Made by a program: the position numbers and the translations under genes
From: Bacteroidales bacterium
GTDB taxonomy: Bacteria > Bacteroidota > Bacteroidia > Bacteroidales > WCHB1-69
Direction of reading: 5' to 3'
Assembly (NCBI GenBank): GCA_017615795.1
Contig: JAFZZK010000020.1
Span: 93,155-157,154 of the forward strand
Length of the DNA stretch: 64,000 nucleotides
The notes under the pieces: model-generated
Told to the model about the DNA's origin: nothing
What the model saw: only the letters and a program-made list of their open reading frames with translations
Databases searched by the model: none
Part shown: piece by piece, positions 3,599 to 48,904 of the stretch
How the letters are laid out: each line of letters starts with the position of its first letter
Numbering within the stretch: the first letter of the stretch is position 1

Positions 3599-4528
3599 CT
3601 ACAAAAAATCCATCACCACCATGGCGGCCATGGCCTCCACGACAGGCAAAACTCGCGGAGCCACACACAAATCGTTGCGGTCGGAACCGTAGCAAATAGC
3701 GGGGTTGCCCTCGAAGTCGATGGTAGGCTGGTCATAGTGTACCGACGGGATGGGCTTGAAAGCCACCCTGAAGACGACCTCCTGGCCGTTGGTGATGCCG
3801 GCCTGCACGCCGCCATCGTGGTTGGTGGCGAGCCCAAAGCCGGAGGTTGGCAAGTCATTGTATTGGGAGCCAGCCATCGCGGCGGCACGGAAGCCCTCGC
3901 CTATCTCGAAGCCTTTGGCTGCATTGATGGAGAGCATCGCGTATGCGAGGCGCGCGGAGAACTTGTCGTAGACTGGCTCGCCCAAGCCGGCGGGCAAGCC
4001 CAATATACGGCAACGCACAAGGGCACCCACGCTGTCACCCTCACGGCAGGGTGTACCAGTTGATACCGTCTCAGCCATGATGGCAATGCCTTTTGTTTTC
4101 AGAAAACATTTGGCCACGGCGCCCGCCACCACGCGGCAGGCGGTCTGACGCGCCGAAGCACGCCCGCATAATTCATTGTCCGTATAGCCATATTTCTTGT
4201 AATAAGAAAGGGAAGCATGCGAGGGACGTATCACGTGCCGGTTAGCCTCGTTGACGCGCACATCGCGGTTATGTATCCGGAAATGGATAGGATCACCCGT
4301 CGTACGCTGCTCGGCATCAAGACCGGAGAGAAACTCCACATAATCATCCTCCGCCCTGCGTGTGGACAGGGCGTGCGACGAGGGCGCGCGACGGGCCATC
4401 TCGGAAGCCACGAACGCTGCCGGCACACAGACACCGGCAGGGCAACCCTCTATCCTGCCCTCCAGACACGTCCCATGAGTGTCGCCCCAATCCGTCAACC
4501 TATAGCGTTTTCCAAATGTGTCATTCAT
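3599..4528 (-). CDS. aroC: Chorismate synthase-like protein, short and divergent
   Basis: 309 aa. N-terminus MNDTFGKRYRLTDWGDTHG aligns with the canonical NTFG..F..TTFGESHG. Other family blocks are RPSHAS, GRASARQTACRVVAGAV, SINAAKGFEIGEGF and GGVQAGITNGQEVVFRVAFKP. The C-terminal block reads RNDLCV instead of RHDPCV. The protein is about 50 aa shorter than typical AroC. Confidence 0.7.
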   Translation of the reverse strand: MNDTFGKRYRLTDWGDTHGTCLEGRIEGCPAGVCVPAAFVASEMARRAPSSHALSTRRAEDDYVEFLSGLDAEQRTTGDPIHFRIHNRDVRVNEANRHVIRPSHASLSYYKKYGYTDNELCGRASARQTACRVVAGAVAKCFLKTKGIAIMAETVSTGTPCREGDSVGALVRCRILGLPAGLGEPVYDKFSARLAYAMLSINAAKGFEIGEGFRAAAMAGSQYNDLPTSGFGLATNHDGGVQAGITNGQEVVFRVAFKPIPSVHYDQPTIDFEGNPAICYGSDRNDLCVAPRVLPVVEAMAAMVVMDFL

Positions 4529-34917: not shown

Positions 34918-34966
34918 CATTTTCAAAAGAACTATGAAAGTCTAAAAAATATAAGTTACGGAGGAC

Positions 34967-34990
34967 GCCGAAAATCCGGAAAAGAGTAGG
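34967..34990 (+). repeat. Leader/cassette repeat copy A, core GCCGAAAATCCGGAAAAGAGTAGG
   Basis: Identical 24/24 to copy C. The ATG of ORF 35014 follows 23 nt later. Weaker similarity extends from about 34958 to 35013. Confidence 0.85.
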
Positions 34991-35013
34991 TGAAAAACTG
35001 TAAAAATTAGAAC

Positions 35014-35547
35014 ATGAGAAACTTTTTTAACAGAGCTACTGGTTTGGAAAAACTGATTCAAATCGTTAGAGAGTCTTGGAATCATCTTGCTGAAAATATT
35101 GCAAGTGGGAAAATATGTATTAATAATGAGGCAGACTTGGAACTCGAACTGGGTTACCTTTTGAAGAAAAAAGGACTGTATGTTGGTCGTCAACATCCCG
35201 CTAGCTTGAACAAAAGTACAAGTAAGACTGCATCTGGAAATGCTAAGGTTGATCTATATACAACACTTTCTGATAGACAAGGCAATTATACGGCAGCCAT
35301 TGAGATGAAATGGCCTCACGATCATATGCCTAAAGATTATAGAATTGAAATTCTTAATGACATTGAAAATCTTGAGGCCTATATTAAAGATGGTATTGCA
35401 GACGTTGGTTTCGCATTGGTATATACAAAAGAGAGAAGCTATCTGGATGACAATCATGAAGTGAAAATCAACAGCACTGGGCACCAAACCGATTGGCTCA
35501 CCTTTAACGACGAACAAGAATGTTTCCTGACCATTTTGGTAAACTAA
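35014..35547 (+). CDS. Stand-alone PD-(D/E)xK nuclease-fold protein, hypothetical
   Basis: 177 aa. Candidate motif E(ADLELE)...KVDLY...AAIEMKW (D..ExK). Homologous block by block to the N-terminus of ORF 36203. Confidence 0.6.
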   Translation: MRNFFNRATGLEKLIQIVRESWNHLAENIASGKICINNEADLELELGYLLKKKGLYVGRQHPASLNKSTSKTASGNAKVDLYTTLSDRQGNYTAAIEMKWPHDHMPKDYRIEILNDIENLEAYIKDGIADVGFALVYTKERSYLDDNHEVKINSTGHQTDWLTFNDEQECFLTILVN

Positions 35548-35594
35548 CAAACCTCAATCACATGAAAGAGAATCCGTCCGATGAGCATAGGAAA

Positions 35595-35619
35595 GCCCGA
35601 AAATCCAGAAAAGAGTAGC
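35595..35619 (+). repeat. Leader/cassette repeat copy B, GCCCGAAAATCCAGAAAAGAGTAGC
   Basis: Differs from copies A and C by a 1-nt insertion and 2 substitutions. The ATG of ORF 35634 follows 14 nt later. Confidence 0.8.
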
Positions 35620-35633
35620 TAAAAAACAATATT

Positions 35634-36038
35634 ATGGCATTAATAAAAAGATGGAAACGTCGCAAAAGTGTTGTTGAAATCGAATTTATGATTGGCGACA
35701 AAGTATGGTTTATCCCCAAAGGAGAAAAAGAGGCAATATCCGGAGAAGTCATTCGTATCCAAGCAGATGTCAAACGCTTCAACAAAAAAACGATAGGTGA
35801 CGTGAAATACACTATTGTAGATGATGTGTATGGTGAATGTTTCGACGTTTCTTACGACAACGTGTATTCTAAAAAGTATGAAGCAGAAGGTTTTTATAAA
35901 TTTGAGTGTCGGGTTTATTTCACAGCTAACGCTTATCAACGAGAAACAGTATTTGCCAAAAACCCCAAAGATGCTGAAGAGATGATAAAGCAGAGGTGTC
36001 CGAATGTGTATAATGTTGAATATGACTCCTATGAGTAG
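35634..36038 (+). CDS. Hypothetical protein
   Basis: 134 aa, AT-rich, preceded by repeat copy B. No motif recognised. Confidence 0.5.
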   Translation: MALIKRWKRRKSVVEIEFMIGDKVWFIPKGEKEAISGEVIRIQADVKRFNKKTIGDVKYTIVDDVYGECFDVSYDNVYSKKYEAEGFYKFECRVYFTANAYQRETVFAKNPKDAEEMIKQRCPNVYNVEYDSYE

Positions 36039-36202
36039 ATTGTGAAACTCTCCATCAACCTACCCTATCACAAGATCTTATAAGGCAAAACGTCTCATCC
36101 CCCTGCCAATGCGCTTTGGACAAGGTGTTTATAACTTTTTTTAGGTTATTCACTTAAATATACAACTAACCAAGGTATATAAGAAGGATAAAACTAAAAA
36201 AC

Positions 36203-37654
36203 ATGTTTCAAACAACCTTCACCCAACAAGTCTTAAACGACATTCATGAATTTCTGAACCAGAACACCAAAGTATTCACCAACAAGCGCGATTTTCAGAT
36301 GAACTTAGCAGTTTATCTGAAATGTGTGAGACATTATGACGTCGAAGTGGAATATCACGTGCCGTCGGACATTCTATCCACCCTTATTCCGCAAACCCTG
36401 CCGGAGAGATGCACCTACTACCCTTGGCTCCAGGCCAACAGCGACAGGCCTCAGGAGATGTACGTGGATATTGTAGTCAGCAACGGGGAGGAATACGTGC
36501 CCGTCGAACTGAAGTACAAGAAGAAAGAGCTGAAAGGCGATGTGGAGCTGTTCGGGCAGAACATGGGCAAGGGCGTCATCCTGAAAGGTGATGCGGCACA
36601 CGATTTCGGACGATATGGCTTTTGGAAGGATGTGCGCAGAACAGAGCTTCTGGTCAAGTCGTTCGAGAATGTCAAGAACGGCATCGTACTGTTTGTCACC
36701 AACGACGAATCCTACAAGACGGCTTCCATGACGGACACCAACAGCGAGCATCTCGCCATGGGTGAAGGCACCGACACGTATCACAAGGGCACGAACTGCT
36801 GCTGGCCGTTCAACCCGCTGATGACAGACACCTACAATTCCTGCCCGAGTTTCAAATTGGAGGACGAACATGATGTGAACTGGAACGGCTACACCTTCAG
36901 TGGGGTTGGTTTCCACTGTGCGGAAGTGATTGTGCATGGCGCCATGACATCTCAGGAGTCTCTTGACAAATATGGTGAGGCCACCATGCACACATTTCGC
37001 GTGAATATAGACACGTACGCCACATACGTAAGCTTTACCGACACGGTGGAAGATTATTATCAGAAAGGAAACGAGCACTATTCGTCAAAGAAAGAATACA
37101 TCCAATATGTCAAAGACTCTTTGGATAATGACGATGCGCTGGAAGAGATATTCGGTCTTGATGATGACAATGATCCTTGGTATGATGTGGACATCTACGG
37201 CGACTTTATTCTCCCCAAAGACATCCCCAACACCCCGTTTTCGCTGGAAGTCCTCGATGAAAATGAACAAGTGGTTTTTTCATCGAAGAATATCCTCGAC
37301 TTTAGCAAGGACTTGCATTTTGAGGAGGAGTTACGCCATTTCGACGGATTGCAGCTTGTCACGCAAGGCCTCACACGATGCTGGTATGAGTTCACCATTC
37401 AGGACACGGAATTCCGTCCCGAGAAGTTCCAGTTCAAAGCGGCAAAAGCGTATTGGAAGAAAAACGCCAACGAGTTCCCGATAGCCCTTTATGAGGCAAC
37501 ATACGATAACAAGCCTGTTGATTGTTCAGATATGACTGGCGACGACAAGGGTTATTTCTGCCGCGAACTGGTGGAGGCAGACCAAAACGGATGGAACATT
37601 CTCGCATCGGTCCAGTTCGACCAATGGGTCCGCGAAATGTTGTTGACGAAATAG
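36203..37654 (+). CDS. PD-(D/E)xK nuclease-fold N-terminal domain fused to a ~300-aa unknown C-terminal region
   Basis: 483 aa. KRDFQMNLAVYL, YVDIVVS and YVPVELKYKK (D..ExK), then GIVLFVTNDESY. These parallel the 177-aa ORF blocks EADLELELGYLL / KVDLYTT / AAIEMKW / GFALVYTKERSY. Confidence 0.65.
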   Translation: MFQTTFTQQVLNDIHEFLNQNTKVFTNKRDFQMNLAVYLKCVRHYDVEVEYHVPSDILSTLIPQTLPERCTYYPWLQANSDRPQEMYVDIVVSNGEEYVPVELKYKKKELKGDVELFGQNMGKGVILKGDAAHDFGRYGFWKDVRRTELLVKSFENVKNGIVLFVTNDESYKTASMTDTNSEHLAMGEGTDTYHKGTNCCWPFNPLMTDTYNSCPSFKLEDEHDVNWNGYTFSGVGFHCAEVIVHGAMTSQESLDKYGEATMHTFRVNIDTYATYVSFTDTVEDYYQKGNEHYSSKKEYIQYVKDSLDNDDALEEIFGLDDDNDPWYDVDIYGDFILPKDIPNTPFSLEVLDENEQVVFSSKNILDFSKDLHFEEELRHFDGLQLVTQGLTRCWYEFTIQDTEFRPEKFQFKAAKAYWKKNANEFPIALYEATYDNKPVDCSDMTGDDKGYFCRELVEADQNGWNILASVQFDQWVREMLLTK

Positions 37655-37689
37655 AGATTACTGTGCTATATCTCCATTAAAAAAATTTC

Positions 37690-37697
37690 TATATTTG
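37690..37697 (+). promoter_or_regulatory. -7 promoter box (TATATTTG) for ORF 37745
   Basis: Exact TAnnTTTG, 48 nt upstream of the ATG. Confidence 0.5.
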
Positions 37698-37744
37698 CAC
37701 CTTCAATAACATACAAACAATAACAACATATAAAGAACAAGATT

Positions 37745-38296
37745 ATGGGATGGTTTAACAGAAACAACAACGACGAGACATCTCGTTACAAGAAAGAAGC
37801 CTCTATCGGAAATCTTACCATTGGCATCCGTCCTGACAACAGTGTGGAACTGATACTTGACGGTAAGATATATAACGGCAATGTGATGCGATTTTTACGC
37901 GATGAGGTTGCCCCGGAGGTGGGACTCAGTGTGGATCCCCGTTGGAACACCCACCAGCTCGGGAGCAAACTTGTGGACTTCATCAATGAAGATGAAGGTG
38001 CTTCTTCAAGCAGTCGCAAAATTTTCAGAATCACATATCATTATTGGGCGATTCCGAAGGGACTCGTTGTGGAGGCGGATACGCTGGACGAGGCCATGAA
38101 AAAAGCACGCGACTTGATAAGAAGCGGCCATGACAGTTGGGAAGACACAGAAACGGAGGAGTGTTTTGACCATATGTCTATCGAGCAAGCTATTATAGAT
38201 GATAATAATGAGGACGACTATCCTGATTGGGACTACGTCGGGGACACCAGATCCGATATTGAATCGTGGAAAGGAGAGAAGTACGAGAAACTTTAA
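37745..38296 (+). CDS. Hypothetical protein with acidic C-terminal half
   Basis: 183 aa. No catalytic motif recognised. Confidence 0.5.
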   Translation: MGWFNRNNNDETSRYKKEASIGNLTIGIRPDNSVELILDGKIYNGNVMRFLRDEVAPEVGLSVDPRWNTHQLGSKLVDFINEDEGASSSSRKIFRITYHYWAIPKGLVVEADTLDEAMKKARDLIRSGHDSWEDTETEECFDHMSIEQAIIDDNNEDDYPDWDYVGDTRSDIESWKGEKYEKL

Positions 38297-38341
38297 TAAA
38301 CATAGAGTCATAATTTTAGTAAAAATCTTAAATTGAATAGT

Positions 38342-38902
38342 ATGGGAATTAACGATCGCTTTAGAAGAAAATCCAACAACAACATTACCAACTGCCCAAC
38401 GTCTGTGGCAACAATTGAGTTAGGAGGAAAATATACCTTTTGCTTGCACGAAATCGATGTCTTGGACAAAGACATTGATATATCTGACAAATTGGACAAT
38501 AGTAGAAAATTAAATGAATACGGGGATGGTCCCTTTTGTATTTTTCGTATAAATAATCATCTAAAAGACAAGGGATTATATTGTTATATCGTTAATGGGG
38601 AACTAAAATACATCGGCGAAACTTGCAAAACTTATGAAGATCGAATAAACAATGGATATGGTCGTATTTACGCTCGTAATTGCTATAAAACAGAAATAAT
38701 TGGAGGAGAGAAACATTCGGGAGGACAATCAACCAATTGCCGAATCAATTCTCTTGTTAATGAAGAACTTCACAATGGAAATGATATTCTGATTGGTTTT
38801 TATGTGATGAATGACAGCAATGATGGCGAAATTAAGTCATTAGAAAGTTTTTTGATTGACAAATACGATCTTGACCGCTTTGGATGGAATAAGAAGCGAT
38901 AA
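38342..38902 (+). CDS. GIY-YIG nuclease-domain protein
   Basis: GLYCYIVNGELKYIGET (GIY-x8-YIG), Arg 9 residues after YIG (YEDR), a later Glu (KSLESFLI) and Asn (GWNKK). Start moved from TTG to the first ATG (MGINDRF). Confidence 0.65.
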   Translation: MGINDRFRRKSNNNITNCPTSVATIELGGKYTFCLHEIDVLDKDIDISDKLDNSRKLNEYGDGPFCIFRINNHLKDKGLYCYIVNGELKYIGETCKTYEDRINNGYGRIYARNCYKTEIIGGEKHSGGQSTNCRINSLVNEELHNGNDILIGFYVMNDSNDGEIKSLESFLIDKYDLDRFGWNKKR

Positions 38903-38947
38903 ACTACACCTTCTATGAACATTAGATAATTATTAAAAGACATTAAC

Positions 38948-39613
38948 ATGGCAGAATTAAGAATTGATGGCCGTATGACTGTTGCGGCATTTGTTGAACA
39001 ATTTGAGAACAAATTTGCAGCTGTACTGAAAGTTTATAAAGACAATAAGGGGCATCTGGCTGAAGACAATGCACGTCTTGCTAATGTTCAGGTGTTGAGA
39101 GCCCCGACAGTAGGCGTTTTCTCTTTCCGTTCTGACATTTCGGTAGGCAGTTTTTGCGATCGACTATATGAGGAGTATGGTCTCGTAGTGAAAGTGTTCC
39201 AGCGTAGTGGGAATGGATCTATGCTTGATAAAATGGCCCTTTCAGATTTGGAAAAGGTTCCTTACAAAGCGAGCAAAAAGGAAATGGAACAATATGCACG
39301 CTATATGGCTAAAGAGATTCAAGATCTGGATTTGAAAAGCGCCGCTGATGAATTGTATGAAAAAGGTAAGAAGGTTAGAAATTCCAACGACAGAAAAGAC
39401 CTTGAAGACCTTGAAGACATAGTGACTCTCTTAGATGAACTTGAGGAAAGTAAACATCGTGGAGGTCTTGATAAGGTCGCCTCTGTTTGTAAAAAATATC
39501 CGATACCTGAGATAGGAGGCATCATATCTTCAATCGTTTCCGGAAATTTTTTGGCTCTTGGAGTGGAAACACTACGGACTTTGATTAAACTGACCGAATT
39601 ATTCAATCAATAA
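38948..39613 (+). CDS. Hypothetical protein (duplicated ~45-aa N-terminal module, coiled-coil middle, hydrophobic tail)
   Basis: 221 aa. TVAAFVEQFENKFAAVLKVY... and SVGSFCDRLYEEYGLVVKVF... look like an internal repeat. Confidence 0.5.
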   Translation: MAELRIDGRMTVAAFVEQFENKFAAVLKVYKDNKGHLAEDNARLANVQVLRAPTVGVFSFRSDISVGSFCDRLYEEYGLVVKVFQRSGNGSMLDKMALSDLEKVPYKASKKEMEQYARYMAKEIQDLDLKSAADELYEKGKKVRNSNDRKDLEDLEDIVTLLDELEESKHRGGLDKVASVCKKYPIPEIGGIISSIVSGNFLALGVETLRTLIKLTELFNQ

Positions 39614-39658
39614 GTCGATAATCATAATAGATTAAGATAACCTTACAATTTAACTGTT

Positions 39659-41173
39659 ATGCACGCATTATCCAAATCCCGCTATACCGCCTTCCGCCAA
39701 TGCCCCAAAAACCTTTGGCTGAAGATATACAAACCGGAAGAGGCCGTAGAAGACCCTTCGTTGCAGGCCCGGCTCGACCAGGGCAACGAGGTGGGCGACC
39801 TCGCCATGCAGTACTTCGGCGACTATGAGGAGGTGACCACCTATTCCCACGGAAGATTAGACCTTTCCGCCATGGTCAAGAAAACCCAACAATATATGCG
39901 GAGCTCCGTGGAAAACATTTGCGAGGCCTCCTTCGAATACAAAGGCAACTATTGCGCTGTCGATATCCTGCACAAGGAGGGTCGCGGCTGGGCCATCTAC
40001 GAGGTGAAAAGCACCACGGCATCTCCCGGGAGGATTGACCGGAGCAAAATCGCACCATACCTCCCCGACATCGCCTACCAGACTTGGGTGCTGGAGCAAT
40101 GCGGGGTCAAGGTAACGGGGTCTTACCTGCTGTGTCTCAACAAGGAGTATCGCCGTGGCAGAGAGCTGAACATTCAGGATATGTTTGTGGCATTAGACCT
40201 CTCCAAAGAGATCGACCACGAGTACCGGCTCATTGACGACACCGTGAGACGGGCGCAGAAGATCATCAACAGCGACGTTGAGCCCGAAATCGACCTTTCG
40301 GAAGACTGCTACAAACCTTATCCGTGCGCCTTCTTCGAATATTGCAAGCGGCAACACGGGATTTCGAAGCCCTCCGTGTTCGATACATACCGTATGTCCG
40401 GGAAGGACAAGATTGAACATTACCAACAAGGGCACACCTCTTTTGAAGATCTGCGCAACGAAAAGTTGACCCCAAACCAACGCAGGCAAGTGGAAAACAC
40501 GCTGAACAACACGATCGAGATAAACAAGGACGGAATCCGCAGGTTTTTGTCCCAGCTCTCCTTGCCGCTCTATTTTCTGGATTTTGAGACGATGCAGAGT
40601 GCGGTGGCGGAATTTGAGGGTGTCAAGCCTTATCAGCAGATTCCGTTCCAATATTCGCTGCATATTGCCAAACGGCCGGGCAAGTATGACCACTTGGGGT
40701 ATCTGGCGGAAAGCGACGGCACCGACCCGCGTCGGGGGGTGGCCGAACAGCTCTGTGACGACATTCCCGCCAATGTGTGCGTGCTCGCATACAATATGCC
40801 GTTCGAGAAAAATTGTCTCAAAGATTTGGCGTACGCCTTCCCGGACTTGTCGCGCCACCTCATGCGCATCCACGACAACATGGTGGATTTGCTCGTGCCT
40901 TTCCGCGAAGGGTACTATTACGTCCCCGCCATGGGCGGCTCGTTCAGCATCAAGAGCGTGTTGCCCGCCCTTTTCCCCAACGACCCCAAACTGGATTACC
41001 ATAACTTGAAGGACGTTCACAACGGCAGCGAGGCCATGGACATCTTCCCGAAAATCAGGACTATGTCGCGCCGCGAAGCCGAGCGCACCCGCGAGAACCT
41101 TCTCCGCTACTGCGAGCTTGACACCTTGGCGATGGTGAAGATCTGGGAGAATTTGATAGAGGTGGCGCAGTAA
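39659..41173 (+). CDS. DUF2779-family protein: Cas4/RecB-like PD-(D/E)xK nuclease with 4-Cys cluster plus C-terminal exonuclease-like domain
   Basis: 504 aa. N-terminal FRQCP, nuclease motif AVDIL...WAIYEVKS, Cys triad CYKPYPCAFFEYC, then LYFLDFET...IPFQYSLH, which is typical of DUF2779 as recalled. Host-like GC (57% in a sampled line). Confidence 0.7.
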   Translation: MHALSKSRYTAFRQCPKNLWLKIYKPEEAVEDPSLQARLDQGNEVGDLAMQYFGDYEEVTTYSHGRLDLSAMVKKTQQYMRSSVENICEASFEYKGNYCAVDILHKEGRGWAIYEVKSTTASPGRIDRSKIAPYLPDIAYQTWVLEQCGVKVTGSYLLCLNKEYRRGRELNIQDMFVALDLSKEIDHEYRLIDDTVRRAQKIINSDVEPEIDLSEDCYKPYPCAFFEYCKRQHGISKPSVFDTYRMSGKDKIEHYQQGHTSFEDLRNEKLTPNQRRQVENTLNNTIEINKDGIRRFLSQLSLPLYFLDFETMQSAVAEFEGVKPYQQIPFQYSLHIAKRPGKYDHLGYLAESDGTDPRRGVAEQLCDDIPANVCVLAYNMPFEKNCLKDLAYAFPDLSRHLMRIHDNMVDLLVPFREGYYYVPAMGGSFSIKSVLPALFPNDPKLDYHNLKDVHNGSEAMDIFPKIRTMSRREAERTRENLLRYCELDTLAMVKIWENLIEVAQ

Positions 41174-41215
41174 AGAAATATTGAGAAACATATTTGGAAT
41201 ATTTTAAAGGAGTAA

Positions 41216-41239
41216 GCCGAAAATCCGGAAAAGAGTAGG
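41216..41239 (+). repeat. Leader/cassette repeat copy C, core GCCGAAAATCCGGAAAAGAGTAGG
   Basis: Identical to copy A. The ATG of ORF 41261 follows 21 nt later. Confidence 0.85.
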
Positions 41240-41260
41240 CGAAATAAAATGTAAAAAAAT

Positions 41261-41890
41261 ATGCATATAGAATATGACTTAGAGAGTGTTGGTAAATTCA
41301 ACTATTTGAAGTTTGAAAAACGTGTGTTTTATATCCCAAATACTCGATACGATATATATATCGAAGGACATATATTAAAAATAGATCTAGGGGATAATTA
41401 TAAGTATGTCATAGCAAATGGCTTAAAATGCTATCAGTTCCTATGGTATAATGCTCAAGACGACACCATTACAACCAATATTGAAGCCGACACTGTAGAC
41501 GGAACACCGACTAACGAATGGTTCTGTTGTACATTCCCCTATGATGCCAAGGAATTTCCTTTGAACGAGCAGCATCCAAGGATTGTGGTTCCTAAAAGAG
41601 ATTATATCGAATTGTTAAATTCATTTTTAGCAGAAAAAACAACCCTTGACGATTCCCTCAAGCAACTTCTTATAGAACACCCAGATTTTTTTAATGCCTA
41701 TTGGCCTATTGAGAAACGGGATATGAATAAGATTGATTGGGTGAAAATAGATGGTGAGCTCAAAGCCGCGCGTGAAAATCCAGAGTGCAGACCATTGTTA
41801 TTGGATAATGATGAGACAATCCCCGAGGAATATAGAAGATTTCCTTCGTGGTTACATAATTTTTTTGTAAAAACGTTAGGCGAGGAATGA
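41261..41890 (+). CDS. Hypothetical protein
   Basis: 209 aa, AT-rich, preceded by repeat copy C. No motif recognised. Confidence 0.5.
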   Translation: MHIEYDLESVGKFNYLKFEKRVFYIPNTRYDIYIEGHILKIDLGDNYKYVIANGLKCYQFLWYNAQDDTITTNIEADTVDGTPTNEWFCCTFPYDAKEFPLNEQHPRIVVPKRDYIELLNSFLAEKTTLDDSLKQLLIEHPDFFNAYWPIEKRDMNKIDWVKIDGELKAARENPECRPLLLDNDETIPEEYRRFPSWLHNFFVKTLGEE

Positions 41891-42309
41891 TTATGTAATC
41901 CGTTTCTTTGATTTTTGCCAAAATGATTACCTACAAATAAACAACTAGGTAAAATAACAAGTATGTATGCATAGAAGAGGTAATATTATTTATTTTGAAG
42001 ATAATCAGGAATTCATTTTTTTTGGCTTTGATATCCAAGTTGATTTTCAAACAATCAACTAAAACACCATATATAGCACCCTTTTCTTCACTGAAGTTTT
42101 GATTTTTTTCGCAAGCTTCACCTATATGGAGCCTCTTATCTTACTTAAAATCTTTTTAATAAAAGAAAAGTCATTGCATGAATATTTATCTCATAAAACT
42201 ATTTTAGAGACCAAGTCATTGCACATTTTTTTAAGAAACGTGTAACAATCTTCGTTTCGAGATTAAAGAAAGAAAAGCATTAGGGGCGAATTTATGTCAA
42301 TGAGCGTGC

Positions 42310-43284
42310 TTATTTTGTGGGCAACGGTAAATTTGCACCATCGGCATTGAGCAAAATAATCCGCAAAAGTTCCATATAATACCTTTCCTCGTCAAATGGG
42401 AAAAAACCACTTTTGAATGGTTCGACATACTTCTTATACTCTAGGGTGGATTTAGACAATCTGTATTTGGCCGCGTGGAAGGCGTCAATCCAATGGATAT
42501 TTTCCAATGTACTAACATTTTCATTTTCATACTTCCACAGATAGTAGCCGAAACCGTAGTGGGCGACACCGCAGCTGAATTGTTTTTGATGTACATTGAA
42601 TTTCGCGCGATCTAATAAACTATCATATTGTTTATCTTTATTGGCCAACGCTTCCACAAATTTAAGCATGCCATACTCCGTTAGCGGCTCTTCCACAAAG
42701 GGAACCGATATGTCTTTTTTATTTAAATCGTCATAGAAAGCGTGAAACATTTCGTGGATTAGAGTGATAACTAGCTGATCTCTATTTATCGAGAATCTTA
42801 AGTCCGTTAGACCCATCCGTGTTTCCATCAACAATACGATTTCTGGCCTGTGACTTTTACCATCGCGGATATAATAACCTGGTAATTCAATTTCCTCAAC
42901 TATGGGTAATTTGTCATCCGGAGATGAGTTAGGATGACTCTTTTTATAATCATCTCTTTTCCACTTCAATATTGTAATCAGATCATCCAGCAATCTACGT
43001 TTGTCCTCTTCCTCACTAGTTTTGTCCATCTCTCTGTTCAACCAGTCAAATTCCTTCTCCAGTTTGGCAATTCTGTTGTTCAAGTCTTTCCATTTAATCT
43101 CATAGCTTTCCGGCCTGCTCTTATATAAATCCAGATAGATAGGGACTTTTTTGTTGATGTCAGACATTTTGAAAAACAGTCCGTCTGGCGTCTTGAACTC
43201 AAAGTCGGAAATATCATCCAAAAGCTTCTGAATATCCTGATCAAGAGGTTCTGTATAATCCCTGTTAAGAAGTGTAATACTCAT
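42310..43284 (-). CDS. Putative HExxH zinc metalloprotease with coiled-coil N-terminal region
   Basis: 324 aa. LIHEMFHAFYDD (HExxH) with a downstream acidic EEPLTEYG as a candidate third ligand. Confidence 0.55.
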   Translation of the reverse strand: MSITLLNRDYTEPLDQDIQKLLDDISDFEFKTPDGLFFKMSDINKKVPIYLDLYKSRPESYEIKWKDLNNRIAKLEKEFDWLNREMDKTSEEEDKRRLLDDLITILKWKRDDYKKSHPNSSPDDKLPIVEEIELPGYYIRDGKSHRPEIVLLMETRMGLTDLRFSINRDQLVITLIHEMFHAFYDDLNKKDISVPFVEEPLTEYGMLKFVEALANKDKQYDSLLDRAKFNVHQKQFSCGVAHYGFGYYLWKYENENVSTLENIHWIDAFHAAKYRLSKSTLEYKKYVEPFKSGFFPFDEERYYMELLRIILLNADGANLPLPTK

Positions 43285-43346
43285 ACGTTTATTATTTTAT
43301 ACCCGTTCATTGAAAACAATCATATTATTCTTATGACCGCAAAAAC

Positions 43347-43497
43347 ACGAATAAGTATTTGTGTTTTCGTCTTGCAAAAATACATTTTTTTTCTAATCTT
43401 GGAACTGTTTTAACGGAAAAGCATCCCCCCGAAATTCTTCTGCAAATCGCGGGTGCAACTCTTCGACAACCGCGTGGGCAACGCCCAATAGGAGACG
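43347..43497. repeat. Duplicated promoter/operator module, copy X (upstream of the HExxH gene)
   Basis: Alignable end to end with 45079..45227. Contains direct half-sites CGCGGGTGCAAC (43448..43459) and CGCGTGGGCAAC (43471..43482). Confidence 0.8.
43375..43382 (-). promoter_or_regulatory. -7 promoter box (TATTTTTG on minus strand) for the HExxH gene
   Basis: Plus-strand CAAAAATA inside module X. Confidence 0.55.
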
Positions 43498-43516
43498 CGC
43501 CATGGCACGTCTCTAC
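43489..43516. repeat. Palindromic element, TAGGAGACG-N10-CGTCTCTAC
   Basis: Arms at 43489..43497 and 43508..43516, spacer CGCCATGGCA. Same architecture as the three copies at 45947, 46150 and 46283. Confidence 0.75.
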
Positions 43517-43610
43517 ACGCCACCATCTTCTTCCTGCTGCCGTTCTTCGTGTCGGGGGTGGCGGTTGTGGTGGGAAAAATATGAGAATGTTTGTAAGTTT
43601 GCTACAATTT

Positions 43611-44498
43611 CTACAGTTCATGTTGCGCTAGAGAAAGACTCACCTTATTCCCACTTCGCGTCGGAAATACCAGCGTGGAATGTTCCTCTATAAGCAGACG
43701 TAATTGTCTCTCACTCACTATAGTCAGATCCACGTCATTCGCCAACATCATTTCAGATATCGCTGGATAGTCAGTAAGCAACCGCATCCGTTCGGTCATT
43801 GTTTGATCTGATATAATAGGAGACAGGGCAAATAGTTCCAGATTAGAGGCTGTCTCCTCAATCAGATGACTTTTCACAAAGTTTTTTTGTTTTTCATCCC
43901 CTATAAGCTCGCCAATTCCCTGCATCAAGACTTTTGGACTTGTCTTCCTTATACTTTCTGCGCACTGTGAGGCATAGCCTGCAACACCCATTCCCGTGCG
44001 CAGTCGGACAATATTCGGGTTGATGGCCGTACCCTTCTGAAGGAAAAACCACACATCGAAAATGTCACGAGGAGTGATACGTTCCCCCAAGGCACAAAGC
44101 TTATGGGCAAACATATCAGGAAGAGTCATTACCCGCACATCCGTGCCCGCCAGAGTCTTGATTTCGTAATGGTTGTCATAATGCCGTGAGGAGACCTCAA
44201 CTTTCAGCATACGGTTACCCCCACCATAATTGAGGACCAGCAAAGGACCATAAAACTTCATTGCCTCGTCATCAATCTTCCCAAAACTCAACAGCAGGTT
44301 GTGCAACGCACGGAATACACTCTCTGCTTTCGTGTCATCCAGCAAGTTGAAATCCAGATCTGTTGAAAACCTGGGCAACTGATGAAACAACATTAACGAG
44401 GTTCCACCTTTAAAGGCAAGTTGTACAGACAGCTCTTTGTCGCGGAAAATGGCAAGCAAGACTTGCATCATAAAATAACGGTGTTTTGCAATATCCAT
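43611..44498 (-). CDS. abiEii: AbiEii/AbiGii-family nucleotidyltransferase toxin (type IV TA)
   Basis: 295 aa. LAFKGGTSL and RFSTDLDF motifs. Lies 4 nt downstream of the AbiEi-like gene. Confidence 0.85.
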   Translation of the reverse strand: MDIAKHRYFMMQVLLAIFRDKELSVQLAFKGGTSLMLFHQLPRFSTDLDFNLLDDTKAESVFRALHNLLLSFGKIDDEAMKFYGPLLVLNYGGGNRMLKVEVSSRHYDNHYEIKTLAGTDVRVMTLPDMFAHKLCALGERITPRDIFDVWFFLQKGTAINPNIVRLRTGMGVAGYASQCAESIRKTSPKVLMQGIGELIGDEKQKNFVKSHLIEETASNLELFALSPIISDQTMTERMRLLTDYPAISEMMLANDVDLTIVSERQLRLLIEEHSTLVFPTRSGNKVSLSLAQHEL

Positions 44499-44502
44499 AA
44501 TG

Positions 44503-45075
44503 TCAGATGCTTAGAATTTTTTTTACATTTTGCTCCAATGCTTTAGATTGATATGTCGGGATTAGATTCTTGACCTTCTTTTTGTTAAGAGGCCGCAGGT
44601 TGTCAAAATAACAATTCCCTGCGCTTAAATATACCATATCCAAAAACGCCCGTTCCGCAGAGGCAATACAAATATTATCCTTTTGCACAATTCCTTCTCC
44701 ACCCAACCATAATTCGGGCTTTATTTGTCGGAAAGAATACTTTTGTGCGCCAACTTCCACCGTTCGGGAAAGATAGCTCACAGAGGTCAGTGCAGAGTCA
44801 TATTGGAAAATCACCCCTGCCTGCCCCAGAACATACTCCAGTGAGAGATAAGACGGATGGAAAATGGAACAAGCCAACTCTTCCGCATTGAAAATGCGTT
44901 TCGTGTAAATTCCGCGTCTTGGATTAAGGATTTCTCCTTTCTTGACATAATAGTTCAGCATTTTCGTCAATCTCACACCATCAGCAATACCTGTCATCAT
45001 AACCAAAGACTGGATGGTAAAGACGGTCCTTGTGGATTCCCATATTAATTTCAGCACATTATTTTGAGAACTCAT
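44503..45075 (-). CDS. abiEi: AbiEi-family antitoxin / transcriptional regulator (type IV TA)
   Basis: 190 aa from MSSQNNVLKLIW. Its size and position directly upstream of AbiEii fit the family. The ORF-track 283-aa version runs through the promoter and repeat, so it was trimmed. Confidence 0.75.
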   Translation of the reverse strand: MSSQNNVLKLIWESTRTVFTIQSLVMMTGIADGVRLTKMLNYYVKKGEILNPRRGIYTKRIFNAEELACSIFHPSYLSLEYVLGQAGVIFQYDSALTSVSYLSRTVEVGAQKYSFRQIKPELWLGGEGIVQKDNICIASAERAFLDMVYLSAGNCYFDNLRPLNKKKVKNLIPTYQSKALEQNVKKILSI

Positions 45076-45078
45076 AAT

Positions 45079-45227
45079 ACGAATAATTTGTATTTTCAGT
45101 TTGCAAAAATACAAATTTTCCAATATCTGAATTGATTTAAAAACAGAAAAAAACGTCGAAATTCTTCTGGACCAAATCGCGGGTGCAACTTTTCGACAAG
45201 CGCGTGGGCAACGCATTATAGGAGACG
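45079..45227. repeat. Duplicated promoter/operator module, copy Y (upstream of abiEi, in the divergent region with the ECF sigma gene)
   Basis: Half-sites CGCGGGTGCAAC (45178..45189) and CGCGTGGGCAAC (45201..45212), the same 23-bp period as copy X. Confidence 0.8.
45104..45111 (-). promoter_or_regulatory. -7 promoter box (TATTTTTG on minus strand) for abiEi-abiEii
   Basis: Plus-strand CAAAAATA, 29 nt upstream of the ATG. Confidence 0.55.
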
Positions 45228-45252
45228 TAACGATTTTTTTGTCACATTTTTG

Positions 45253-45260
45253 TATTTTTG
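45253..45260 (+). promoter_or_regulatory. -7 promoter box (TATTTTTG) for the ECF sigma gene
   Basis: Exact TAnnTTTG, 54 nt upstream of the ATG. Confidence 0.5.
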
Positions 45261-45313
45261 CGTCACCTATTTTGTAGGGCCGTATCGCATACGCCCGCTG
45301 GCAATATACCAAA

Positions 45314-46486
45314 ATGGATAAGGCGAAATTCTGGGAACGGAAATACCGACGCAATCTCGGCAGGATTGTCGGAATCTGCTACCGCTACGTCAACGACCGG
45401 GCGGTGGCAGAGGACCTGGCGCAGGACGTTTTCGTGAAGGCTATGGAGAAGTTCACGACCATCCGCGCCATCGGACGCTTTGACGCCTGGCTGACCCATA
45501 TCGCCGTGAACCATTGCATCGACCACCTGCGCCGACAACCGGATTTCGTGCCGATAGAACTTGAGAGCATAGCCGAAACCTCCACGAAAGAAGAAATGGT
45601 GTGGACAGCGGATTTTACGGAGGAGGAATTGCTGGAGGCTATCGGGCAACTACCTGAGATTCAGCGTACCGTGTTCAACCTCCACGCTATGGAGCGATAC
45701 TCGCACCGGCGCATCGCGGGAATGTTGGGCATCTCGGCGGACAACGCCCGGCAACTGCACCACCGCGCCCGCGAGCGGCTGTGCCAAATGCTCGCCGACC
45801 GACACAAAGAGAAGGAAAAACGCAAAAAAGGACTATTGTTTATGATCATTTTGTTTGCTTCGTTGAAACGCGCCCACGCAAACCCACGCCGCATCGACCG
45901 CCTCTACCGTTCGCGGTTGTCGGGATATAGGATGGAACCTGCCAATGTAGAGTCGCACCCCGGCACGTCTCTACAGGCGCATCTGCGGGACACAGATGCC
46001 CACCATATCTCCACCAGCCTCGCCACGCAAAAAAACGCCATCCTCCTCATTACGGCGGCGGGTGTCGCAGGCGTCACGGGCGGCGCCATCGGGTTTCAGA
46101 TTGGGAGGAACACGACACCGGTATCGGGTTCGGGGAACGGTCCCGTTGTGGTAGAGACGCAATGCATTGCGTCTCTACCAGACACGACAGACGGCCATCA
46201 CGTTATCGGAACCAATAATCATTCATCCCTATGGACCAAAACCGTTCCTACACGCACCGGAAATGTGAAAATTCCCGTGGAGGTAGAGACGTTTCATGAA
46301 ACGTCTCTACAGGAGACATCCTTACCTAAAACATCCCCACACCCCCAAAACGTCACGGCCTCCGTCCCCGTTCCCGACACCACCCCCATCATCATCACCA
46401 CAAGAATTCCCGTCCGCCAAACCGTTGTGATTCGGGACACCACCTCCATCTCCGACACCGTTTTTCTAATAAAGAATGAAGAATGA
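45314..46486 (+). CDS. ECF-type sigma-70 factor fused to a ~215-aa membrane-spanning low-complexity C-terminal extension
   Basis: Region 2 (DLAQDVFVKAMEKF...FDAWLTHIAVNHCIDHLRR) and region 4 (LPEIQRTVFNLHAMERYSHRRIAGMLGISADNARQLHHRARERL) occupy about the first 170 aa. TM segments GLLFMIILFASL and AILLITAAGVAGVTGGAIGF follow. The stop overlaps the next start (ATGA). Confidence 0.7.
   Translation: MDKAKFWERKYRRNLGRIVGICYRYVNDRAVAEDLAQDVFVKAMEKFTTIRAIGRFDAWLTHIAVNHCIDHLRRQPDFVPIELESIAETSTKEEMVWTADFTEEELLEAIGQLPEIQRTVFNLHAMERYSHRRIAGMLGISADNARQLHHRARERLCQMLADRHKEKEKRKKGLLFMIILFASLKRAHANPRRIDRLYRSRLSGYRMEPANVESHPGTSLQAHLRDTDAHHISTSLATQKNAILLITAAGVAGVTGGAIGFQIGRNTTPVSGSGNGPVVVETQCIASLPDTTDGHHVIGTNNHSSLWTKTVPTRTGNVKIPVEVETFHETSLQETSLPKTSPHPQNVTASVPVPDTTPIIITTRIPVRQTVVIRDTTSISDTVFLIKNEE
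45947..45974. repeat. Palindromic element, GTAGAGTCG-N10-CGTCTCTAC, inside the sigma-extension ORF
   Basis: 8 of 9 arm positions are complementary. Spacer CACCCCGGCA. Confidence 0.75.
46150..46179. repeat. Perfect 30-nt palindrome GGTAGAGACGCAATG|CATTGCGTCTCTACC inside the sigma-extension ORF
   Basis: Read directly from the sequence. Core arms GTAGAGACG / CGTCTCTAC with a self-complementary 10-nt spacer. Confidence 0.9.
46283..46310. repeat. Perfect 28-nt palindrome GTAGAGACGTTTCA|TGAAACGTCTCTAC inside the sigma-extension ORF
   Basis: Read directly from the sequence. In the same reading frame as the two previous copies (offsets of 204 and 132 nt). Confidence 0.9.
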
Positions 46487-47271
46487 AAAATAATAGAGAC
46501 ACCTTCCTTGAGCAGCCTCGGAGAGGCAACACGCACGGAGCGCAATTAACCCTCGTCCTTCTCATCCTCGCTCTCGCCCACCCTCTCGCCGCGCAGCACC
46601 GCGACACCCTCTATGTGGTCGAGGAGGAGCCCGTCTATGACACCCTCTTCGTACACGACACACTTCACACTTACGACACGGTCAGCCTTGATGAACACAT
46701 CCACAGCAAGTATCCCAAAAAAGAATTAAGCATTTCGTATGGCGTGTTCCCAATCATAGGGGTTTTTAACTTCGGAGAATACCGGGTATTTCGCGAATTT
46801 GACGATCTGTGTCCTTTCTTAGAAAAACAACCCATTCTATCGGGCAGTGTGAATCTGCAATACCACCATTATTTCAACAAATACAACGTGTTGAACATCG
46901 ATGTTTCGTGGGCTATGTACAAACACCACAATATGATAGCGGTGGAGAACAGCTACAAATATGGCAACCAATACTTGCATTTTATCTCTGCACAGATAGG
47001 CTACAGCATCTATTATTTCCACAAGGGAAAAGTGACTTTATACTCCTCCGTATATCTTGGCGGAACGCTTTATTACATCGGAACCCTATGGGATCATTAC
47101 GACACACACTATGCGGAGTACCTTATGGGGACTAGCCCAGTGATGACACTCAAACCGGCTTTGCACATCAACTGGGTCGGCATCCGGATAGGCGAACACA
47201 ACGCCGCCACCTTTGAACTCGGATTCGGCACGCAGGGAGTACTGAAATTTGGGTATAGTTACCGATTTTAA
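46483..47271 (+). CDS. Outer-membrane beta-barrel protein (porin-like), hypothetical
   Basis: 262 aa. Signal-like LTLVLLILALAHPLAAQ, alternating aromatic beta-strands, terminal ELGFGTQGVLKFGYSYRF. Confidence 0.65.
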   Translation: MKNNRDTFLEQPRRGNTHGAQLTLVLLILALAHPLAAQHRDTLYVVEEEPVYDTLFVHDTLHTYDTVSLDEHIHSKYPKKELSISYGVFPIIGVFNFGEYRVFREFDDLCPFLEKQPILSGSVNLQYHHYFNKYNVLNIDVSWAMYKHHNMIAVENSYKYGNQYLHFISAQIGYSIYYFHKGKVTLYSSVYLGGTLYYIGTLWDHYDTHYAEYLMGTSPVMTLKPALHINWVGIRIGEHNAATFELGFGTQGVLKFGYSYRF

Positions 47272-47287
47272 CGAAAAACATTTGAAT

Positions 47288-48001
47288 ATGAAAAATAATC
47301 TACCTTTGTTCGTTTTAGCGGTTCTTTTACTTGCATCCTGCCGCGAAAAGGAGCCCGTGGTTAAAGTCATAGAGAATGCTGTTACTGACTATGACGGAAA
47401 CACATACAACGCCGTACAAATCGGCAAACAAGTCTGGATGAAAGAAAACCTGCGCACAACGCATTATGCTGACGGGACACCTGTGGGCAGTGACGACATC
47501 TGTAGCGTTGAACAGCGTGCAAACACATCTGAAGAATATGGCTTTCTGTATTCCGATGAGGCTGCTGCACTGGGTGGGTCGTACAACAATGATGCCTCCA
47601 ACTCTGTTCAGGGAATCTGCCCTGATGGTTGGCATCTTCCCTCCCGATATGAATGGCTGGTGTTAAGCCGGTATGTGCAACAATTCACTGATGATGTTGT
47701 GGGTGCGCTCTCCGCGCCAGCAGGTTGGGACCTGGACACAAACGGCATCCACAACACGTCTGATATCAACAGCTTCCAATTTTCAGCTCTCCCTTCCCGA
47801 AGAATCGAATACTATTCATACAGCAAACCTGTCGGATGCTTCTGGTCATCTACCGTTTATCAGACGGACGGGTTACGCCCACCCGTAATCTATACGTATG
47901 ATATGACCGTGATGGATTATTACAACAACACACAACTTTACTTTTTCCGCTATGGCGGTATGTTCCCGTTTGCTTCCGTCCGATGTGTGCGAGACAAATA
48001 A
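47288..48001 (+). CDS. FISH-domain (Fibrobacter succinogenes major paralogous domain) lipoprotein
   Basis: Lipobox LLLASC. DYDGNTYNAVQIGKQVWMKENL, GICPDGWHLPSRYEW, FSALPS, FWSST and the terminal VRCVRD. Confidence 0.85.
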   Translation: MKNNLPLFVLAVLLLASCREKEPVVKVIENAVTDYDGNTYNAVQIGKQVWMKENLRTTHYADGTPVGSDDICSVEQRANTSEEYGFLYSDEAAALGGSYNNDASNSVQGICPDGWHLPSRYEWLVLSRYVQQFTDDVVGALSAPAGWDLDTNGIHNTSDINSFQFSALPSRRIEYYSYSKPVGCFWSSTVYQTDGLRPPVIYTYDMTVMDYYNNTQLYFFRYGGMFPFASVRCVRDK

Positions 48002-48015
48002 TCTAAACCAGCCTT

Positions 48016-48657
48016 ATGAATAAAAAGATTATCCTTATCAGTATATTGTCGCTGTTCTGCTGGCACATTTCCGGTCAAGAAAACGATCAACAGCCATCTG
48101 ATTTTCGACGCAATGAAATCGGTATGTCCATTGGTGCTTTCTCACAGCCATCCATATTTTATGCCGGTTCGGAAGTCATTCCCGTCTTTTATGAAGGGTA
48201 TAAGGTTGAGAATAAAATAATGTGCCAGTACAATATTGGTTCGTTTTCACTTTACTACCGATATCATTTCACAGAGCGCCTTAGTTTGGGTATTGTATCT
48301 ACATTACTGTTCAGCAAAATAGTGGATAAATACAATGTGGAAGACCATTCCGGTTTTTTTACTTTTTGGACCTTGGAACCACAGTTCCGTTTTACCTATA
48401 AAAGATTCAAACATTGCGCTCTCTATATGGGAGGGGCTTTAGGTCTCGCCTTCCGTATCGCCAGCAATGACAAACTTCCCTATTGGGATACAGCCGGAGG
48501 CGGTTGGTTCTCAATCAGCTACGGAAGTTTTTTTGTTATGCCGTCTTCGCACATCACATTCTTCGGCATCTCTCTCGGCAAGGACAACGTCGCCAATATT
48601 GAGCTGGGGTTCGGCACACAGGGAATCTTGAATGTGGGGTACAGTCGGAAGTTTTAA
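48016..48657 (+). CDS. Outer-membrane beta-barrel protein, paralog of 46483..47271
   Basis: 213 aa with a signal peptide. The C-terminus IELGFGTQGILNVGYSRKF parallels the earlier gene. Confidence 0.65.
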   Translation: MNKKIILISILSLFCWHISGQENDQQPSDFRRNEIGMSIGAFSQPSIFYAGSEVIPVFYEGYKVENKIMCQYNIGSFSLYYRYHFTERLSLGIVSTLLFSKIVDKYNVEDHSGFFTFWTLEPQFRFTYKRFKHCALYMGGALGLAFRIASNDKLPYWDTAGGGWFSISYGSFFVMPSSHITFFGISLGKDNVANIELGFGTQGILNVGYSRKF

Positions 48658-48904
48658 TCCGTAGAGACACCATCATCCGCCAGCACGCACCATTCCAGGA
48701 CTCACTCCGTTCGTTTCGTGTGGGGTCACAATAATGTCGTGCTTCCTCCCTGCGGCACACAAGGACACTCCATTTTTTAAGCTGGTACAAGGTCGTTATG
48801 GACCCGGCAGAGCGAAATCAGCGATATTTCAAGGCCGTTGTTTTATCTGCGACAAAGAAAAGATTTAAAAAAAAATCCCCCGTTGCGGATATCAATAAAT
48901 TTTA

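Follow-up and report, generated by a model that had tools for sequence, protein, structure and literature searches.

A duplicated module upstream of abiEi and an HExxH gene in a Bacteroidales genome: probable insertion-junction repeats and a captured promoter

A 64,000-nt stretch of contig JAFZZK010000020.1 from a Bacteroidales bacterium (assembly GCA_017615795.1), referred to here as the window and used for all coordinates, contains two copies of a ~150-nt module. One copy (X, 43347-43497) lies upstream of a gene encoding an HExxH protein and the other (Y, 45079-45227) lies upstream of the toxin-antitoxin operon abiEi-abiEii, and an initial annotation had interpreted the pair as an operator shared by the two transcription units. 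The module is a composite of three pieces that are unrelated to one another: a relic of a small membrane-protein gene (SMP, a name given in this analysis), one arm of a 28-nt palindrome, and a promoter of abiE. It is linked to the junctions of inserted gene cassettes, its two halves are independent of each other, and its three pieces travel together because of the way in which the locus was assembled. We place the probability that the module represents insertion-junction repeats combined with promoter capture at roughly 0.8.

The duplication itself is real. X and Y align co-linearly in the same orientation, and a BLASTN search of the whole window with Y as the query recovered X (157 alignment columns, 77% identity, E = 2.7e-27). 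All other matches had E values of at least 0.09, and the 64 kb therefore hold exactly two copies of the module. Conservation between the copies is concentrated in a distal block of 55 nt (43443-43497 versus 45173-45227, 91% identity) and a proximal block of 34 nt (43357-43390 versus 45086-45119, 82% identity), which are separated by a poorly conserved middle portion of ~45 nt. The paired 12-nt repeats that had been described as half-sites start at 43448 and 43471 in X and at 45178 and 45201 in Y, with a spacing of 23 nt in each copy; the minus-strand -7 boxes, TATTTTTG, occupy 43382..43375 (X) and 45111..45104 (Y), and the ATG codons of the HExxH gene and abiEi are at 43284 and 45075. All of these elements are located where the initial annotation had placed them. 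An Rfam scan of the window and nine related loci (related contigs and loci compared with the window are labeled with L-numbers) found no RNA family covering the module, and only DUF805b leaders elsewhere.

The distal ~60 nt of the module is a non-functional fragment derived from the 3' part of SMP. When the half-site pair was scanned over one genome per species, all matches in the Bacteroidales were in rumen-type metagenome-assembled genomes (MAGs), save one chance match in Parabacteroides merdae, and in six of these MAGs the half-site sequence lies within a conserved plus-strand open reading frame (ORF) of 106 aa, which is SMP. Actinobacterial and other high-GC matches were dropped as chance matches lacking flanking similarity; only the Parabacteroides match was inspected. 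The SMP protein reads ..LDVPPKFFWTKSRVQLFDNRVGNAFGYAVIFFLLPFF.. over the half-site region, and in the intact SMP of related rumen Bacteroidales the bases of the distal part encode KFFWTKSRVQLFDNRVGNA. The half-sites are codons, for S-R-V-Q-L and N-R-V-G-N, read in a different frame for each repeat. A tblastn search with intact SMP matched X to aa 60-106 (E = 3e-14) and Y to aa 64-83 (90% identity), and BLASTN against a reference SMP gene matched the X core to nt 184-246 and Y to nt 188-248, each at 95% identity. The same tblastn search found no intact SMP copy in the window, which holds fragments only. Relic X comprises a plus-strand core (43426..43488, codons ~62-84, with the half-sites at 43448-43459 and 43471-43482) and a tail (43517..43584, codons 85-106, ending in ..FFLLPFFVSGVAVVVGKI and a TGA stop at 43582-43584). 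The tail abuts the 3' end of abiEii, and in L024 abiEii is preceded by the same tail variant and a spacer. Relic Y (45157..45218, plus strand, codons ~63-83) carries its half-sites at 45178-45189 and 45201-45212.

SMP behaves as a real coding gene, as judged from seven intact copies in which nonsynonymous (pN) and synonymous (pS) divergence are 0.054 and 0.18, a ratio of 0.30. The ~80 proteins of the family, none of them annotated, come exclusively from MAGs of Bacteroidales or from metagenome assemblies. The two half-sites match each other at 10 of 12 positions. Similarity of this degree arose in 1.9% of shuffles of the 70-nt core, and a direct 10/12 match was also present in 295 of 300 codon shuffles of the SMP gene, so that the resemblance calls for no explanation of its own. 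Neither strand of the core folds better than its shuffles (z = 0.36 and 0.95).

The second piece of the module is the "GAGACG end" described in the initial annotation. It is present in both copies and is the left arm of a 28-nt palindrome. In relic X the complete palindrome, TAGGAGACGCGCCATGGCACGTCTCTAC (folding z = -2.4), occupies 43489..43516 and creates an in-frame TAG at 43489-43491. An identical hairpin recurs at this position of SMP in L027, L029, L047, L053 and L056 and two times in L024, and the 28-nt palindrome is an allele of the SMP tail. In Y only a truncated left arm, ATAGGAGACG, remains (45219..45227); here homology to related loci stops and a block of genes headed by an ECF sigma factor, which cuts relic Y inside the palindrome, begins. 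There are four copies of the palindrome family in the window. The other three, of the form GTAGAGACG-N10-CGTCTCTAC (45947-45974, 46151-46178 and 46283-46310), are in frame in the C-terminal extension of the ECF sigma-factor ORF (45314-46486) and belong to the same family as the SMP-relic hairpin.

The proximal ~85 nt of the module, judged from sequence conservation, appears to be the core promoter and 5' leader of abiE itself. The operon is genuine, as proposed: abiEi, the antitoxin gene (44503..45075, minus strand; PADLOC AbiEi E = 2.9e-77, with a weak match to NCBIfam TAA_AbiEi), is followed on the same strand after a 4-nt gap by abiEii (43611..44498; Pfam PF08843 E = 2.3e-22, PADLOC AbiEii E = 1.5e-91), which encodes a DUF1814 nucleotidyltransferase, the toxin of this type IV toxin-antitoxin pair. 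We found 3178 homologues of abiEi. The native promoter and leader (P, 45076..45156, minus strand, with its -7 box at 45111..45104) is conserved: the -7 box and the leader CAAACTGAAAATACAAATTATT are kept in homologues of 62-85% identity (L054, L063, L064, L066 and L068), which share a leader of the form TAnnTTTGCAAACTGAAAATACAAATTATT..ATG and show nothing conserved further upstream. In L054 the abiE pair stands in an unrelated context with its leader intact and no SMP sequence. Both -7 boxes of the window fit TAnnTTTG, the consensus of the Bacteroidetes -7 motif (e.g. PMC7366714), and they lie 29 nt (abiEi) and 91 nt (HExxH) before the ATG. P also contains a perfect palindrome, AATTTGTATTTT-N9-AAAATACAAATT, whose 12-nt arms (45085-45096 and 45106-45117) are separated by a 9-nt spacer and extend across the -7 box. 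This palindrome appeared as a self-hit in BLASTN and folds with z = -4.4, a value matched by none of 200 shuffles.

The arrangement of these pieces indicates that X and Y mark the left and right junctions, respectively, of an AbiE cassette that was inserted here, because SMP relics flank the same cassette in L024 and other repeats bracket the cassettes in L054 and L068. The AbiE cassette together with both flanking relics (43426-45227) is 87% identical between the window and L024. At other targets, cassettes of the same AbiE subfamily are bracketed by direct repeats that are perfect over 16 nt in L054 (264-279 and 1816-1831) and over 23 nt in L068, where they extend to ~39 nt with gaps (2774-2812 and 4307-4376); no convincing bracketing repeats were found at the abiE loci L063, L064 and L066. 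Across three targets, the duplications on either side of this subfamily measure between 16 and ~150 nt, and the direct repeats around cassettes at unrelated targets suggest that the abiE pair and its promoter move as a unit.

The HExxH gene is preceded by a second copy of the core promoter and 5' leader of abiE, P' (43347..43431, minus strand, -7 box at 43382..43375), which has diverged and includes a degenerate form of the palindrome. P' aligns with the abiEi upstream regions of the window, L024, L034 and L054, and X shares 86% identity over 238 nt with the sequence upstream of abiEi in L024, compared with 77% with Y of the window. The homology of X to the abiE upstream sequence begins 3 nt before the position of the abiEi ATG; between this point and the HExxH ATG lies a 62-nt flank (43285..43346) that is specific to the HExxH gene, occurs only with X and in L052, and is absent from all abiEi upstream regions. 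In L052 the module is 96% identical and the order is HExxH gene, 62-nt flank, P', and SMP core with the same 3-nt deletion. The L052 core runs into a hairpin-free SMP tail and an ATPase gene, and no abiE is adjacent on the sequenced side.

The HExxH gene (42310..43284, minus strand) is an ORF of 324 codons and represents the short form of its family, in which the long members end in an LRR_5 domain. The family numbers only 10 proteins, four of which are 516-559 aa in length, three of these with LRR_5. The L052 homologue is 577 aa long, carries LRR_5 and has 75% protein identity. The window sequence past the HExxH stop codon (42065-42310) still aligns to the HExxH-LRR_5 coding sequence of L052, and the window gene is therefore a truncated form (324 versus 577 aa) that has lost its C-terminal part. 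The protein matches no Pfam, NCBIfam or PADLOC family beyond a weak, sub-threshold match to EAD9, and its AlphaFold2 model (pLDDT 74) had no Foldseek match in the PDB. Upstream of SMP in L030, L034, L044, L047, L052, L056 and L057 are plus-strand proteins that share the N-terminus K-H-x-H/E/N-A-V-V/I-V-C-S-I-I-G and differ in their C-terminal parts; the members of this set in L056 and L057 are 27-29% identical to HExxH residues ~170-311.

From these alignments, P' is most simply explained as a diverged paralogue of the abiE promoter that was captured by the HExxH gene. In this scheme an earlier AbiE-type cassette would have lost its reading frames to an incoming HExxH-LRR gene bringing its own 62-nt flank, while the promoter (P') and the right-hand junction of that cassette would have been retained; a second AbiE cassette would later have inserted into the same core in the lineage of the window. 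The HExxH gene would then be transcribed from P', possibly with read-through from abiE. A scan of 43200-45400 for sigma-70 promoters and intrinsic terminators, which models no Bacteroidetes promoters, returned nothing relevant, including no terminator between abiEii and the HExxH gene.

Comparison with related genomes shows that the SMP 3' region is an insertion hot spot in rumen Bacteroidales, and a literature search found no description of such a Bacteroidales hot spot. Another 17 contigs came into the comparison when metagenomes were scanned with the core sequence. Individual contigs carry two to five SMP copies or 3' fragments in direct orientation (L011, L024, L027, L034, L041-L050, L053, L055 and L056), and between them lie cassettes of one or two genes. 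The cargo includes AbiE (the window, L024 and L034), MNT-HEPN (L027 and L053), an ORF6N protein (L024), AAA_14/DUF4143 and ATPase_2 ATPases (L011, L018, L022, L034, L047, L050-L052 and L055), an LRR_5 protein (L042-L048) and lipoproteins (L049, L050 and L056). Direct repeats of the SMP 3' segment bracket abiE in the window, L024 and L034 (the right-hand copy of L034 being degenerate), and they bracket other cargo likewise in L011, L027, L047, L050, L053 and L056. Several cassettes bring their own variant of the SMP tail (..VVERL*, ..VVRRL*, ..VAGR* or ..VVGKI*), and the usual tail (..GKW*) with the native downstream flank returns behind the last cassette. An intact, regenerated SMP stands at one end of the array in L024, L027, L034, L043 and L053; the window has fragments only. 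A regenerated target accompanied by a displaced fragment is the pattern left by insertions into gene 3' ends (PMC4383910).

These results bear directly on how the module was thought to function. The initial annotation had taken the 12-nt direct repeats as half-sites for AbiEi and had suggested that a shared operator co-regulates the HExxH gene with the toxin-antitoxin pair, of which its product may be a functional partner. The occurrence of the repeats upstream of both genes with an identical 23-nt spacing, and the fact that AbiEi relatives are autorepressors (PMC7319586), speak for this model, but we consider it very improbable. In the AbiEi operators characterised so far, the binding units are 23-bp inverted repeats overlapping the promoter, two of them in S. 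agalactiae and pairs of them in Prv2827c (PMC7319586), whereas the half-sites CGCGGGTGCAAC and CGCGTGGGCAAC are direct repeats that lie 65-105 nt upstream of the -7 box and do not overlap the core promoter. Nor do they travel with abiEi: allowing up to 2 mismatches, they were present within 600 nt upstream of abiEi in none of 10 loci (L054 and L063-L071, representing five distinct homologues of 62-85% identity), and L054 keeps only the -7 box and leader. Conversely, the half-site sequence occurs with no abiE nearby in L022, L027, L029, L030 and others, in intact SMP genes and beside unrelated cassettes, and the similarity of the two repeats to each other is expected from the composition of the SMP gene. 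The proposed partnership with the HExxH protein, and the expectation that its family accompanies AbiE in relatives, fare no better. The L052 homologue has the module and no adjacent abiE on its sequenced side, and distant homologues (34-55% identity; L058-L062) occur in five contexts, none of which contains abiE, P' or the SMP core. What survives of the shared module is that both genes carry a homologous promoter and leader; the operator built on half-sites does not, since these are SMP codons.

The homology of P and P' leaves room for a modified form of co-regulation, compatible with the junction-repeat and promoter-capture reading, in which AbiEi would repress P and P' alike by way of the palindrome and leader around the -7 box and transcription start. 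If AbiEi autoregulates like its characterised relatives, the operator would be the palindrome over the -7 box and transcription start, and this palindrome rather than the SMP relic is the operator candidate because characterised AbiEi proteins bind promoter-overlapping inverted repeats. The palindrome overlaps the -7 box, folds well (z = -4.4) and is arranged like the known AbiEi operators; abiEi homologues of 62-85% identity share the leader; and P' retains TGTATTTTTGCAAGACGAAAACACAAAT, or ~7-8 of 8-11 arm positions. However, conservation of the left arm is loose in the more distant homologues, which leaves the operator role conjectural, and the conservation may instead reflect the -7 box and an element of the 5' untranslated region. 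P' has several substitutions and a 3-nt insertion in the leader, and L052 keeps P' without an adjacent abiE. AbiEi may control the HExxH gene through the retained palindrome, although we judge this the less probable outcome.

How the cassettes enter SMP is a separate question. The favoured route is a Campbell-type single crossover in which a circular intermediate would recombine at the SMP segment, and entry is probably homology-driven, because the repeat boundaries vary and no integrase is nearby. The left boundaries of SMP fragments range over nt 41-216 of the 321-nt gene (values include 41, 59, 73, 87, 134-152 and 216). Pfam searches covering the cassettes, the window island and 10 kb on either side of SMP in ten contexts yielded no integrase or recombinase family, and only an IS200-like Y1_Tnp with REP-like (repetitive extragenic palindrome) arrays turned up downstream of SMP, in some contexts. 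The Y1 transposase gene lies directly downstream of SMP in L044 (4160-4621) and in L072-L075; in L044, the sole such locus inspected, REP-like arrays (TGGAACCCCTNACGGGGTTC...) lie to either side of it.

The main alternative to homologous crossover is a site-specific enzyme acting in trans. The SMP core would then be a true attachment site for a recombinase encoded elsewhere, and the locus an integron- or satellite-like platform. Six reverse-oriented cassette types start their SMP homology within a 22-nt zone (nt 169-190), the cassette tail variants restore the frame, which is a hallmark of integrase insertion into gene 3' ends (PMC4383910), and at two other targets short repeats flank the AbiE cassettes. 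We nevertheless regard this alternative as unlikely, since no integrase, serine recombinase or IntI family occurs within 10 kb of SMP in the ten contexts, the other boundaries scatter over nt 41-216, and the core lacks attC-like single-strand structure (z = 0.4 and 0.9). A stronger version, in which the SMP 3' end is a dedicated capture site where cassettes without integrases are stacked by a trans-acting recombinase or a cassette-borne activity, appears to us quite doubtful; if true, it would make the AbiE cassette one such unit and the locus a functional analogue of the integron with a coding-gene segment in place of attC. That the module is simply a dispersed repeat of the REP or MITE (miniature inverted-repeat transposable element) type with no tie to its neighbours is scarcely credible. 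The palindrome family does occur four times in the window and REP-like arrays do lie downstream of SMP in related loci, but the whole module occurs only twice in 64 kb, and in other genomes the distal part invariably goes with the SMP locus and the proximal part with abiEi.

Several points weigh against the reading of the module as junction repeats with a captured promoter and against homology-driven entry. Most loci came from exact-pattern scans, and the sample is consequently biased toward well-conserved cores. The window has no intact SMP, so that the regenerated-target half of the insertion pattern is seen only in related genomes. The replacement of the earlier abiE reading frames by the HExxH gene is a reconstruction from two states, those of L052 and the window, and not an observed event. 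The cluster of boundaries at nt 169-190, common to six reverse-oriented cassette types, could equally indicate a specific recombination site, and neither a circular intermediate, nor an empty site, nor a recombinase was observed.

The region forms the right-hand margin of a low-GC island (~35.0-45.2 kb) in which GC content is 36-44%, compared with ~53% outside, with the exception of one 54% GC interval at 40-41 kb. Eight plus-strand ORFs occupy 35014-41890 of the island; seven have no Pfam family, six of these also have no NCBIfam family, and the eighth (39659-41173) encodes a DUF2779/Cas4-like nuclease. The DUF805b RNA motif (RF02914) occurs on the plus strand at 34958-34992 and 41207-41241; several plus-strand genes of the island have it ~20 nt ahead of their ATG. 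It is also present in L022 (at 1415, 4186, 5223 and 7462), L024, L027, L029, L030 and L034, sometimes with a similar promoter before the motif, and reaches four copies per 8 kb, all co-oriented with SMP. DUF805b looks like a recurring translational leader of island cassettes. On the other side, between the AbiE cassette and the gdhA promoter, the block at 45228-48877 contains four genes, encoding the ECF sigma factor with its extension, two related proteins of unassigned function and a Fib_succ_major protein. This block is absent from L034, where the AbiE cassette directly abuts the gdhA promoter.

The locus is not a new kind of regulatory system and reflects largely ordinary processes, namely insertion scars and the duplication of a promoter. 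Two features are still of modest interest, a hot spot for cassette stacking and a captured abiE promoter before an uncharacterised HExxH gene. The case illustrates that a conserved pair of repeats ahead of an antitoxin gene is not necessarily an operator. In this instance the repeats are what is left of the codons of a dead gene at an insertion junction, and work on abiE autoregulation would be better aimed at the palindrome at 45085-45117. Rumen Bacteroidales stack small defence and toxin-antitoxin cassettes behind SMP, and one such cassette appears to have lent its promoter to an unrelated gene. Recognition of this pattern should help in the annotation of variable islets of rumen MAGs, and it bears on how defence genes come to be shuffled where mobile-element machinery is not obvious.

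Chromosomal integrons also accumulate small cassettes, including toxin-antitoxin cassettes with their own promoters. The SMP loci resemble such arrays in that small, often single-gene cassettes, many of them for toxin-antitoxin or defence functions, are stacked with a recurring element of ~50-150 nt between them, and in that some cassettes are reversed and carry their own promoter. They differ in that the element between cassettes derives from a protein-coding gene and is without hairpin potential, no IntI is found near any array examined, and cassette boundaries are uneven. An attC-like site or integron array was rejected as an assignment on the grounds that the core is without structure and IntI integrase is absent.

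A closer likeness is to islands inserted at gene 3' ends, such as Islander-type elements at tRNA and tmRNA genes (PMC4383910) and SGI1 at trmE (PMC8409611). As in those systems, direct repeats of the target 3' segment bracket the insert, the gene end carried by the insert restores the ORF with the displaced original end left at the far side, and several insertions occur in tandem. Here, however, the target is a 106-aa membrane-protein gene of unassigned function, the inserts are 1-2.3 kb in length and hold one or two genes, no integrase is present in the inserts or within 10 kb, boundaries are variable, and the target gene of the window has been lost. The tycheposons and tandem cargo-only remnants at tRNA genes of Prochlorococcus (bioRxiv 10.1101/2020.12.28.424599) offer another parallel. 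They likewise show repeated insertion at one site with partial target repeats between cargo, and many cargo blocks without a recombinase; tycheposons have identifiable tyrosine recombinases and tRNA targets, neither of which is found here. As to regulation, the bicistronic abiEi-abiEii operon and the palindrome over its core promoter correspond to the abiE operon of S. agalactiae and to M. tuberculosis Rv2827c in organization and in the expected position and symmetry of the operator (PMC7319586). The operators there are 23-bp repeats spaced by 3 or 13 bp and the candidate operator here has 12-nt arms and a 9-nt spacer; the half-sites proposed earlier differ from such operators as far-upstream direct repeats of coding origin. 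Overall, the locus would work like tandem islands at the 3' end of a gene, and its likeness to an integron array is superficial.

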